Below, one piece after another: positions 14,540 through 16,324 of a stretch of DNA of 34,045 nucleotides. Numbering within the stretch: the first letter of the stretch is position 1; each line of letters opens with the position of its first letter. The notes under the pieces are model-generated. The model worked only from the letters and a program-made list of their open reading frames with translations, made no database searches and was not told where the DNA came from. The position numbers and the translations under genes are program-made. Source of the DNA: an uncultured archaeon (GTDB lineage Archaea > Aenigmatarchaeota > Aenigmatarchaeia > CG10238-14); contig CAYMPD010000013.1 of assembly GCA_964392445.1 (NCBI GenBank), positions 1 to 34,045 of the forward strand, read 5' to 3'.

Positions 14540-15415
14540 ATGGTCCCAAATTTTTCATATTATGATATTAAAAGAAAGGTAAAAATCCCGGAATTTAACG
14601 AAAAACTAGCGGAATTTTGGGGTATATTATCGGGTGATGGATTTCTAACTAAAATAGGGAAAGTTCATAGATTAGGGGTTTGCTTTCACTTGAAAGATGA
14701 TATTCACTATTCGAGGTATGTTAAGTTGCTTATCAAAAACTTATTTAACATAGAACCGACCGTATCAATTAAGAAAAAAGAAACTATACTATATCTATTA
14801 GTACATTCAAGAGGTATTACAGATTTTATCAGTGAAAATAATTTTCCAGTAGGAATTAAGAAGGATAAATTAGAAATCCCAAAATGGATAGCTAATAATA
14901 AAAAATTTGTTAAGAGGTATTTAAGAGGTTTGATAGATACTGACGGTTGCTTATTTTACGCGAAGAGAGGAACTTATAAAGTCAATAAATATCCAGTAAT
15001 AGAAATAAAAATGCACGACAGAAGTTTCATTAAAAATATCGGATCGATAATTAATAATTTAGGATTTAAAATCGTAAGGCGAAAATATAAAATTCAACTA
15101 AACGGAAAACAAAATCTCAATAAATGGTTAGATTTAATTGGTTTTAAAAATATAAAACACATAACTAGATATTTAATATGGAAAAAATATGGGTTTTGTC
15201 CACCTGGAACAGATCTAAAAGAAAGATTAAATTTATTAAGCCGAGGGTTCGCCGAGGTTCCAAAAGGGCTCGAAGGCAGAACGGCTATGCAACCGATCTC
15301 CAAAAGAGAGTTGAAGCTGCAGAACTGGTATTTAAGCCAAGTTGCTGATACCGGTAGAAATGGGTTCGACTCCCATCCTCGGCTTGATTTTTCTAAAAGA
15401 GGTGAGTTTGAATGA
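14540..15415 (+). CDS. Free-standing double-motif LAGLIDADG endonuclease-like protein
   Basis: LAEFWGILSGDG and YLRGLIDTDG motifs. The last ~54 codons are encoded by the tRNA-Cys gene and its trailer. Confidence 0.88.
   Translation: MVPNFSYYDIKRKVKIPEFNEKLAEFWGILSGDGFLTKIGKVHRLGVCFHLKDDIHYSRYVKLLIKNLFNIEPTVSIKKKETILYLLVHSRGITDFISENNFPVGIKKDKLEIPKWIANNKKFVKRYLRGLIDTDGCLFYAKRGTYKVNKYPVIEIKMHDRSFIKNIGSIINNLGFKIVRRKYKIQLNGKQNLNKWLDLIGFKNIKHITRYLIWKKYGFCPPGTDLKERLNLLSRGFAEVPKGLEGRTAMQPISKRELKLQNWYLSQVADTGRNGFDSHPRLDFSKRGEFE
15251..15384 (+). tRNA. tRNA-Cys(GCA) with three introns (15259-15274, 15296-15315, 15323-15349)
   Basis: Exon join gives a 71-nt cloverleaf: acceptor GCCGAGG/CCTCGGC, D stem GCA/TGC, anticodon arm ACCGG-CTGCAGA-CCGGT, T arm ATGGG-TTCGACT-CCCAT, U73 discriminator. 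Introns 1 and 2 have strict bulge-helix-bulge (BHB) motifs; intron 3 has a relaxed one. Adjacent to cysK and cysS. Confidence 0.93.
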
Positions 15416-15441
15416 CTGGTGAATTAGTTTGTCAAGGATGA
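15412..15441 (+). promoter_or_regulatory. Cys-codon leader uORF copy 2 (MTGELVCQG*), overlapping cysK in the +1 frame
   Basis: Strong SD GAGGTGA 6 nt upstream. TGT at codon 7. The ATG overlaps the LAGLIDADG stop (ATGA). Confidence 0.6.
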
Positions 15442-16324
15442 TCCATTAGAACTGATCGGAAATACACCTTTAGTTAAAGTAAGAATGGGTGGAGAAGTTA
15501 TCTTTGTCAAAATGGAAAATCTTAATCCTTCGGGGTCGATCAAAGACAGAATCGCGAAGTACATGATAGAAAAGGCTGAAGAGAGAGGTCTGCTAAAACC
15601 TGGAATGAGTATAATTGAACCCACTAGTGGAAATACTGGAATTGCGTTATCGTTCGTTTCATCGATAAAAGGGTATAGATTCATTGCAGTAATACCTGAA
15701 TTCGCGAGCAAAGAAAGAATCAACATAATGAAACAATACGGAGCAAGGGTTATTCTGACATCAAAAGAAGAAAATATGAAAGGTGCTGTGAAAAAAGCTA
15801 GAGAATTAACTCAGAAGTTGAATGCCTTTATGCCAAACCAGTTTAAAAATGAAAGTAATATTTTAGCACATAAAGAAACTACCGGGAAAGAAATACTGGA
15901 ACAAATAGGGAACTTGGATGTATTTGTAGCAGGTGTAGGAACTGGTGGGACATTAATAGGTATTGCTAAAGCCCTGAAAGAGAAAGATGAAAATGTAAGA
16001 ATAGTCGCAGTAGAACCAGCGGGATCTCCGTTATTGTCAAAAGGGAAAGTAGGTTTTCACAAAATTCAAGGTATAGGTGAAGATTTTGTTCCAAAAATAC
16101 TAGAAGATAATCTGGACTTGGTAGACGAGATTGTAACAGTTAGTGGCGAACAAGCAATTGAAACTTCCAAGAGATTGACAAAAAAAGGTTTTTTCGTAGG
16201 AATATCATCAGGTGCAAATGTTTACGCATCATTAAAAATAGCCAAAAAGTTAAAAAATAAAAGAGTAGTTACCGTATTACCTGATAGCGCTGATAGGTAT
16301 TATAGTACTGAATTGTTTAAATGA
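15412..16324 (+). CDS. cysK: Cysteine synthase (O-acetylserine sulfhydrylase), needing a +1 shift near 15427-15441 for its full N-terminus
   Basis: ENLNPSGSIKDR (PLP Lys), EPTSGNTG, GVGTGGT, HKIQGIG, GISSGA. The conserved LELIGNTPLVKV lies upstream of the first in-frame ATG (15485), and that frame is closed by TAG at 15425. Confidence 0.9.

Follow-up and report, generated by a model that had tools for sequence, protein, structure and literature searches.

A putative codon-programmable +1 frameshift cassette ahead of cysK in an Aenigmarchaeota-type DPANN archaeon

Among the closest described systems are those in which a ribosome changes frame while waiting at a slowly decoded sense codon. In hungry-codon shifting, and at the sites of Ty1, ABP140 and EST3 (CUU-AGG-C), a CUU-type tRNA in the peptidyl (P) site slips by +1 as a scarce tRNA slows decoding of the next sense codon (PMC5009743). 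According to that 2016 review, no example is known of hungry-codon frameshifting that makes trans-frame proteins under starvation conditions. For archaea, a 2021 review reports only one proven case of frameshifting, of the -1 type (PMC8211752). The stretch of DNA analysed here, called the window, is a 34,045-nt contig of an uncultured archaeon (Aenigmatarchaeota), part of a 1.2-Mb metagenome-assembled genome (MAG) of 54 contigs that is 95% complete. Within it, the cysteine synthase gene cysK lies in the +1 frame relative to a short leader that starts behind a strong Shine-Dalgarno (SD) sequence and contains a single Cys codon. Most likely this leader is a copy of a +1 frameshift cassette that is conserved among Aenigmarchaeota-type DPANN archaea and can be programmed by its codon. 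That the window cysK is governed by a hungry-codon +1 frameshift sensing Cys-tRNA is given a probability of roughly two in three (0.68), judged from sequence comparison.

The original prediction described an SD sequence and ATG heading a leader that encodes MTGELVCQG, with CysK in the +1 frame, closed by a TAG and lacking any canonical start before the conserved LELIGNTPLV. Direct reading of the sequence bears out both the leader and the frame relation. The features concerned are as follows.

15399-15405, + strand: SD sequence GAGGTGA of the cysK leader, read from the sequence, with a 6-nt spacer to the ATG
15412-15441, + strand: leader open reading frame (ORF), 0 frame, MTGELVCQG, from ATG 15412 to the TGA stop at 15439-15441
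15418-15422, + strand: internal SD-like GGTGA, 4 nt 5' of the shift codon
15419-15427, + strand: GTG AAT TAG in the +1 frame, with GTG at 15419-15421 and TAG at 15425-15427 closing the frame as codon 3
15427-15432, + strand: proposed shift site GTT-TGT; NTT-TGY is conserved and is the sole window open in all cassettes
15431-16324, + strand: cysK body in the +1 frame, with PALP and TIGR01139 matches

The 3' end of the 16S rRNA, read on contig C31 of the same genome, is complementary to GAGGTGA. Between the TAG and ATG 15485, which is the next canonical start, the CysK frame holds no ATG, GTG or TTG, and ATG 15485 lies 12 codons past the beginning of LELIGNTPLV. A short 0-frame ORF here overlaps a long +1 ORF that has no usable start of its own. 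The predicted trans-frame CysK is 303 aa long with the N-terminus MTGELV-VKDDPLELIGNTP. On the +1 frame the NCBIfam cysK model TIGR01139 scores 377.3 bits (cut-off 350.95) over residues 8-297, i.e. full length, and Pfam PALP matches at 4e-77. Both matches start before ATG 15485, at residues 8-9 of this frame.

Contigs from four public sequencing runs were compared with the window over 14300-16400. One run is the probable source of the assembly, and a second, from a hypersaline-lake metagenome, belongs to another study; contigs of the other two cover the region in part and stop short of the leader. A 409-nt contig from the other study (depth 8.8) spans 15135-15543 with 4 substitutions and 0 gaps. 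Two of the four substitutions fall in the cysK frame, one synonymous and one Val to Ile. Because this contig carries the same layout without a gap, the frame layout exists in a second population. Between the window cysK and the contigs of that study 34 differences are listed, 23 synonymous and 11 non-synonymous, against a random expectation of 22% synonymous.

Alignment of related cysK 5' ends shows the +1 offset kept in every cassette-bearing cysK found, in the window's own genome and in six others (G001, G003, G004, G023, G130 and G221). None of these genes has a leader start codon in frame with CysK. In the window as in the relatives the SD-led start lies 7 nt upstream of the GTG position, in frame -1 to CysK, and encodes M-x-G-E-x-(V/L/F)-C. 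Two genomes of the same genus read GTG AAT ATT TTT GCC (G004) and GTG AAC AAG TTT GCT (G001) in the CysK frame, and begun at this GTG their CysK N-terminus is normal. The view of the CysK frame as startless therefore needs qualification: it holds in the window but not in these two close relatives, which retain a usable +1-frame GTG. Judged from its sequence, the window locus also fits the description of a GTG-started gene interrupted by TAG at its third codon; wherever the GTG frame is open, direct initiation may offer ribosomes a second way in. The same third-codon TAG occurs in G023, a genome of another family whose CysK is 37% identical to the window's, and in the G003 cysK GGG replaces GTG in the +1 frame.

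The shared element consists of an SD sequence, a start codon, zero or one codon, GGN-GRA, one codon, NTT and TGY. It was searched for with a 21-nt pattern (RTG NNN GGN GRA NNN NTT TGY) and the reversed pattern as a control. The pattern matches 21 of 23 genomes of the family, the window's own included (20 of the 22 others), against 2 matches in total for the control, so its occurrence is beyond chance. It is also found in families across the class, e.g. in f1 (16 of 17), f8 (10 of 16) and f27 (7 of 8), and in f2 a shorter variant without codon 2 heads genes for winged helix-turn-helix (wHTH) proteins.

Composition was counted over 53 distinct cassettes. The start codon is ATG in 43, GTG in 8 and TTG in 2, and G is enriched at -10 to -5, the position of the SD. 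The Gly codon is GGT in 36, GGG in 12, GGC in 4 and GGA in 1, leaving its wobble base free, and codon 4 is GAA in 40, GGA in 13 and GAG in none; GGNGRA is thus invariant at G, G, G, R and A. Codon 6 is CTT (26), GTT (20), TTT (6) or ATT (1), and codon 7 is TGC (38) or TGT (15), so that the slippery GTT-T and Cys codon proposed for the window correspond to an invariant NTT and TGY. A search that put no constraint on codon 6 still recovered NTT in 53 of 53. Beyond the Cys codon there is no conservation in the 0 frame, which meets a stop within 0-15 codons. The 0 frame appears to be a real translated start, since an SD stands at -10 to -5, the start codon varies yet is always a start, and the Gly wobble is free. 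The internal SD proposed for the window (GGTGA) fares less evenly, with GGNGRA conserved but GGT present in only 68% of cassettes. Lying 4 nt upstream of the shift site, GGNGRA resembles GGUGA, the complement of the genome's own 16S 3' end, and by analogy with prfB it may take part in shifting.

The Cys-codon copies whose surroundings were read have, with one exception in the window's own genome, a cargo gene. They stand before tRNA-Cys followed by cysS or cysK, before cysK itself, or before a 60-75 aa ArsR-type wHTH gene, and the ArsR-type genes behind Cys cassettes adjoin cysK, cysS or tRNA-Cys. Other cargo comprises an amidohydrolase gene before cysK and a gene with a PP-loop (SGGxDS) motif before cysS, the latter assigned to its family by eye. 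The exception is a third Cys cassette of the window's genome (C31:7628-7675, MVGELVCSDEIIHRK-stop), which has neither obvious cargo nor a Cys-gene partner. A tRNA gene with an intron, by eye probably tRNA-Ala(TGC), runs convergently to this copy, the 16S rRNA 3' end adjoins it at the contig edge, and its +1 frame closes after only 22 codons. Five members of a Cys-free wHTH subfamily begin ATGGGTGRMC, with the same conserved out-of-frame ATG 4 nt before the GTG and no sensor codon.

Many cassettes leave no direct way into the downstream gene. The +1 frame has GGG, GCG or GAG in place of GTG in 17 of 53 (32%), and its codon 3 is TAG or TAA in 15 of 53 (28%). Blocked wHTH genes are nevertheless under purifying selection, with ratios of non-synonymous to synonymous substitution rates (dN/dS) of 0.14-0.37. 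The wHTH ORFs of G013 and G020, for example, whose +1 frame reads GGG AAT TAG and whose first canonical starts are at codons 29 and 56, differ by dS 0.61 and dN 0.09 (ratio 0.14). For G099 and G097, which have GCG for GTG and no start for about 50 codons, dN/dS is 0.30, and the wHTH ORF of G010 has zero canonical starts anywhere. Because startless +1 frames remain under selection, these genes must be entered from the SD-led 0-frame start. Both the site and its frame relation are conserved across species with the downstream ORF under selection.

The position of the shift can be bracketed from the same set. Where the +1 frame has a stop at codon 3, the shift is required downstream of that stop, and in four genomes (G003, G007, G018 and G150) a 0-frame stop directly after the Cys codon requires it no later than the Cys codon. 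With +1 stops just before and 0-frame stops just after, NTT-TGY is the sole common shift window; the stretch GTT TGT CAA GGA TGA first proposed for the window is narrowed to GTT-TGT. In the window's genome Leu is encoded by CTT in 19% of cases and Val by GTT in 48%. Re-pairing on UUU would keep 2 of 3 positions for the window's GUU, and for CUU and UUU it is prfB-like or better, as expected of a slippery P-site codon. Cys accounts for 1.5% of codons in this genome, and the only credible tRNA-Cys gene (GCA) has three introns.

Two other readings of the conserved block were set aside. As a palindromic operator, GGNGAA-N4-TTTGC matches between half-sites at only 3 of 5 positions, its variation tracks codon positions, and SD and start are conserved with it. 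A hairpin within the cassette was rejected as there are no compensatory changes. Separately, f1 wHTH cassettes (six copies) carry a hairpin, GCUGAU-UAA-AUCAGC, which starts 6 nt past the Cys codon and whose loop contains the 0-frame stop; in G017 it shows a compensatory U-A to C-G change, and it is confined to this f1 wHTH subgroup.

The strongest comparative support for amino-acid sensing comes from cassettes in which the seventh codon is exchanged. The window's own genome was searched for the same cassette with other seventh codons, and the contexts were then read. The loci are listed by contig.

C19:18631-21962: Trp cassettes, TGG, four copies, before a YbaK-type editing protein gene and the tryptophanyl-tRNA synthetase gene TrpRS (NF008927, 530 bits)
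C4:38694-38865: Tyr cassette, TAC, 10 nt before tRNA-Tyr(GTA)
C1:27200-28795: Pro cassette, CCA, before tRNA-Pro(TGG) and the prolyl-tRNA synthetase gene ProRS
C4:20840-23155: His cassettes, CAC, two nested copies, before tRNA-His(GTG), a racemase gene and the histidyl-tRNA synthetase gene HisRS

The four C19 cassettes head a wHTH paralog, an Asp/Glu-racemase paralog, a LuxR-like gene (by eye) and a 125-aa ORF. One of them differs from the cysK leader in its last base alone and also has TAG in the +1 frame. In the family, 10 of 23 genomes contain clusters of TGG cassettes. Apart from sensing of the cognate aminoacyl-tRNA, little would readily explain a codon that tracks the downstream tRNA or synthetase in this way. 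The proposal that the leader senses cysteine is thus favoured by the tRNA-Cys, cysK and cysS context, and more strongly by these Trp, Tyr, Pro and His versions before the matching genes.

Paralogs of the Asp/Glu racemase (PF01177) stand behind cassettes at the Trp (C19:18862-19548), His (C4:21130-21861) and Tyr (C4:39633-40325) loci, and may be amino-acid-specific racemases for D-amino-acid salvage. Two +1 shifts in a row at the His locus would lead into a 75-aa ORF (C4:20875-21102) that enters tRNA-His and is AbrB/SpoVT-like by eye.

Where a cassette precedes a tRNA gene or another cassette, the +1 frame tends to stay open across what follows. Among 24 cassettes linked to a tRNA or arranged in tandem (at least six families), 22 have a +1 frame that is stop-free past the tRNA or to the next cassette, over runs of 48 to more than 300 codons, while the other two frames of the same stretches contain about 4-5 stops each. 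The register in which the tRNA is read in the open frame differs between genomes, so the open frame is not simply a by-product of inheriting the tRNA sequence. In the window and in six other genomes (G001, G149, G150, G215, G221 and G023) the +1 stop falls within a few bases of the next start, often as ATGA. Shifted ribosomes might be delivered in this way to the next start, which in the window would amount to a two-stage switch, but this is conjecture.

The window provides such a tandem locus, with cysS following cysK:

14388-14427, + strand: twin cassette, MAGELVCKV-stop, with SD GGTGGG, ATG 14398 and shift site GTT-TGC at 14413-14418
14414-15415, + strand: +1 frame of the twin cassette, open for 333 codons
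15251-15384, + strand: tRNA-Cys(GCA) with three introns, ending 27 nt 5' of the leader ATG
16336-17733, + strand: cysS (cysteine-tRNA ligase), 11 nt past cysK with its own SD (TIGR00435, 472 bits)

A 21-mer identical to the twin cassette is present in G001, G011 and G013. Its +1 frame crosses a LAGLIDADG ORF, whose ATG 14540 is in frame, and the entire tRNA-Cys, and the TGA that ends it overlaps the cysK leader ATG (ATGA). The tRNA-Cys is missed by ARAGORN and Rfam; ARAGORN calls tRNA-Cys(gca) once the three introns are removed by script. Its anticodon loop is a normal 7 nt, and G001 and G004 carry intron-free orthologs at the same position. Scans of the unspliced window for tRNAs and RNA families returned only one RNA, an archaeal signal recognition particle (SRP) RNA found in the RNA-family scan.

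The LAGLIDADG homing-endonuclease-like ORF (PF14528, 6e-7) lies at 14540-15238, between the twin cassette and tRNA-Cys, and reads on to 15415. It has no SD of its own and is in frame with the cassette +1 frame, which it holds open to the next leader; G001 has the corresponding locus without it. That the repeat at 14398 and 15412 is a target-site duplication made by the LAGLIDADG element was rejected, as G001 has both copies and no endonuclease gene. A box C/D sRNA at the upstream copy was likewise rejected, the boxes not being conserved among copies (by eye). At 14338 a contig from the other study lacks one base relative to the window, near the 3' end of a patatin-like gene (13524-14357).

In the mechanism proposed here, a ribosome would initiate at the SD-led ATG 15412 and read MTGELV, placing GUU in the P site and the Cys codon UGU in the aminoacyl (A) site. 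With Cys-tRNA plentiful, UGU would be decoded and translation would stop 2 codons on at the TGA at 15439, giving no CysK. With Cys-tRNA scarce, the A site would stand empty and the P-site Val-tRNA would slip from GUU to UUU, perhaps aided by the SD-like GGUGA 4 nt upstream. GUC would be read next, and translation in +1 would yield full-length cysteine synthase; across cassettes the codon read after the slip would be GYN (Ala or Val). The closely following cysS would probably be translated too. The twin cassette at 14398 would act likewise, its +1 ribosomes crossing the LAGLIDADG ORF and tRNA-Cys to the ATGA overlap as the first stage of a two-stage switch. The event itself is thus taken to be ribosomal slippage at NUU-U, at a rate that would follow Cys-tRNA charging, and coupling across the tRNA would be translational. 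A more general form of the proposal is held at slightly better than even odds. It sees a modular charged-tRNA sensor that is programmable by codon, in which a leader of 6-7 codons ends in NUU and the sensor codon, and a hungry codon sends ribosomes by +1 either into the regulated gene (cysK, wHTH genes, racemases) or along a stop-free path through a tRNA to the matching synthetase, sometimes with two cassettes in series.

Several points weigh against this interpretation. The support is entirely comparative: it consists of the layout of the sequence, which recurs in a second population, the conservation of the cassette and of its +1 relation, selection on startless genes, and the match of codon to cargo. 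For the window cysK the selection signal is indirect, as the 10%-divergent cysK contig of the other study is unlinked to the leader-bearing contig. If tRNA-Val(GAC) moves from GUU to UUU, its first position is mismatched; re-pairing is better in cassettes with CUU or UUU. It is also unusual for one sense codon to serve as the pause signal, and a conserved 3' stimulator was not found: a hairpin (below -1.5; mean z -0.56) follows 14 of 53 cassettes, and none follows the window cysK leader. The +1-frame GTG is kept in 68% of cassettes and in all Cys-free wHTH paralogs, and direct initiation there probably occurs in many genes; it could be the ancestral route, and perhaps persists as a basal second route where the frame is open. 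Finally, an SD-like GGATGATCC at 15436-15444, 7 nt before the in-frame CTG 15452, could give weak non-AUG initiation.

This last point bears on the alternative that survives best, although it is considered unlikely. Here the leader would be a Cys-sensing stalling upstream ORF without any frameshift, and CysK would be started separately, at a weak non-canonical codon behind GGATGATCC (CTG 15452 or ATC 15455) or at ATG 15485. The element lies 3 nt past the Cys codon and overlaps the leader TGA stop, and its last six bases (UGAUCC, 15439-15444) pair perfectly with the 16S 3' end. However, neither GGATGATCC nor the CTG is conserved in other cassette-bearing cysK genes, and a start at ATG 15485 loses the initial residues of the cysK and PALP matches. 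A separate start also leaves unexplained the startless wHTH ORFs under purifying selection, the invariant NTT and the stop-free +1 frames through tRNA genes.

A recent cysK pseudogene is a distinctly unlikely explanation. An ancestral GTG-started gene would have gained a TAG at codon 3, the ATG leader being an unrelated overlapping small ORF. One base change from the open frames of the same genus (GTG AAT ATT in G004, GTG AAC AAG in G001) makes such a TAG, and DPANN genomes readily lose biosynthetic genes. The remainder of the gene is nonetheless intact and above the TIGR01139 cut-off, the layout is fixed in the second population, and the differences between the two are mostly synonymous. TAG or TAA occupies the same codon in other cassettes of the 15, among them selected wHTH genes and the G023 cysK. 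The contig of the second population and the similarly blocked but selected genes of relatives together make an inactivating mutation, one of the null hypotheses raised at the outset, improbable.

Very unlikely, too, is recoding of another kind, namely decoding of UGYN as a four-base codon by tRNA-Cys, a GTG start followed by read-through of the +1-frame TAG, or a short hop. Each of these routes yields an open product, and four-base decoding would give MTGELVC-KDDPLELIGNTP, a plausible N-terminus. Yet four-base decoding leaves the invariant TT before TGY unexplained, does not sit with the normal 7-nt anticodon loop of tRNA-Cys, and would raise CysK output at high Cys-tRNA, the opposite of the response required. 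Read-through is of no use to cassettes with GGG or GCG at the start position of the +1 frame. TAG terminates 135 of 695 long ORFs (19%), and with TAG in such ordinary stop use and a best PylS match of 36.7 bits (cut-off 178), pyrrolysine or TAG reassignment was rejected.

A conserved 16-nt block, GGNGRANNNNTTTGYN (15418-15433), might instead be a mini-intron or other RNA element, as removal of 16 nt (3n+1) fuses the ATG frame to CysK and, on our inspection, gives plausible in-frame N-termini in every cassette. This is highly improbable. A scan for bulge-helix-bulge mini-introns over all 3n+1 lengths of 10-61 nt and all positions placed one in at best 6 of 53 cassettes under relaxed and 2 of 53 under strict rules, and the idea was rejected. 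The block can be folded into a weak hairpin of 5-6 bp, but its pairs are A-U and G-U, 13 of the 53 cassettes contain a mismatch in it, and compensatory changes are absent. Nor does a mini-intron account for codon 7 switching to Trp, Tyr, Pro or His to match the tRNA downstream. An error of one base in assembly or sequencing, conceivable for a MAG of 54 contigs at low depth (~5x), is rejected outright and left with a negligible chance, as the contig from the independent study is identical in frame and gap-free over the leader, the site is not a homopolymer and the same frame relation recurs in dozens of genomes.

No published description of such a cassette system was found in literature searches. 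If the frameshift interpretation is true, it would be the first amino-acid-sensing programmed frameshift and the first regulatory +1 frameshift in cellular archaeal genes, and a swap of the sensor codon should swap the amino acid sensed. It would also explain how tRNA, synthetase and amino-acid-supply genes are tuned in genome-reduced DPANN archaea. There is a consequence for annotation as well, in that gene callers truncate or drop such genes; the cysK of the window is called from ATG 15485.

Among known systems, the autoregulatory +1 frameshift of bacterial prfB (release factor 2; CUU-UGA-C) shares several features with the cassette: a short 0-frame ORF overlapping a long +1 ORF near its 5' end, a P-site NUU followed by U that re-pairs on UUU, an SD-like element 3-4 nt upstream, and a site conserved in many species. 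It differs in that its slow codon is a stop that reports on release factor, whereas here a sense codon would report on aminoacyl-tRNA. Here the host is an archaeon, the shift would fall at codon 6-7, right after initiation, and the internal SD-like element is only 68% intact. The cassette is also modular, being reused on many genes and before tRNA genes with its sensor codon exchanged. With Ty1 and the hungry-codon shifting of Gallant it would share slippage of a CUU-type P-site tRNA before a slowly decoded sense codon; at Ty1 the tRNA is constitutively rare and the product ratio fixed, while here the pause codon matches the regulated pathway. Ketolide-induced frameshifting in the ermC leader (PMC5009743), in which shifted ribosomes continue and switch on downstream genes, has its parallel here in the +1 frames that lead from a cassette to the next start codon. 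There, however, the trigger is an antibiotic on a bacterial ribosome and translation in the new frame unfolds a hairpin, whereas here the trigger would be aminoacyl-tRNA and translation in the new frame would read the gene itself or cross a tRNA gene.

Attenuators and the poly-Cys leaderless small ORFs of mycobacteria (bioRxiv 10.1101/834739) likewise place a tiny ORF with codons for the regulated amino acid before biosynthesis genes and use the ribosome as sensor. The cassette departs from them in having a single regulatory codon and no run, and its output would be a change of reading frame. The codon run with terminator and antiterminator that marks an attenuator is not seen here: the leader has one Cys codon, and no conserved downstream structure was found among the 53 cassettes. 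As its cargo includes tRNA and aminoacyl-tRNA synthetase genes, the cassette is functionally closer to the T-box regulon than to attenuators, and, if the proposal is true, would be a ribosome-based functional counterpart of that bacterial system.

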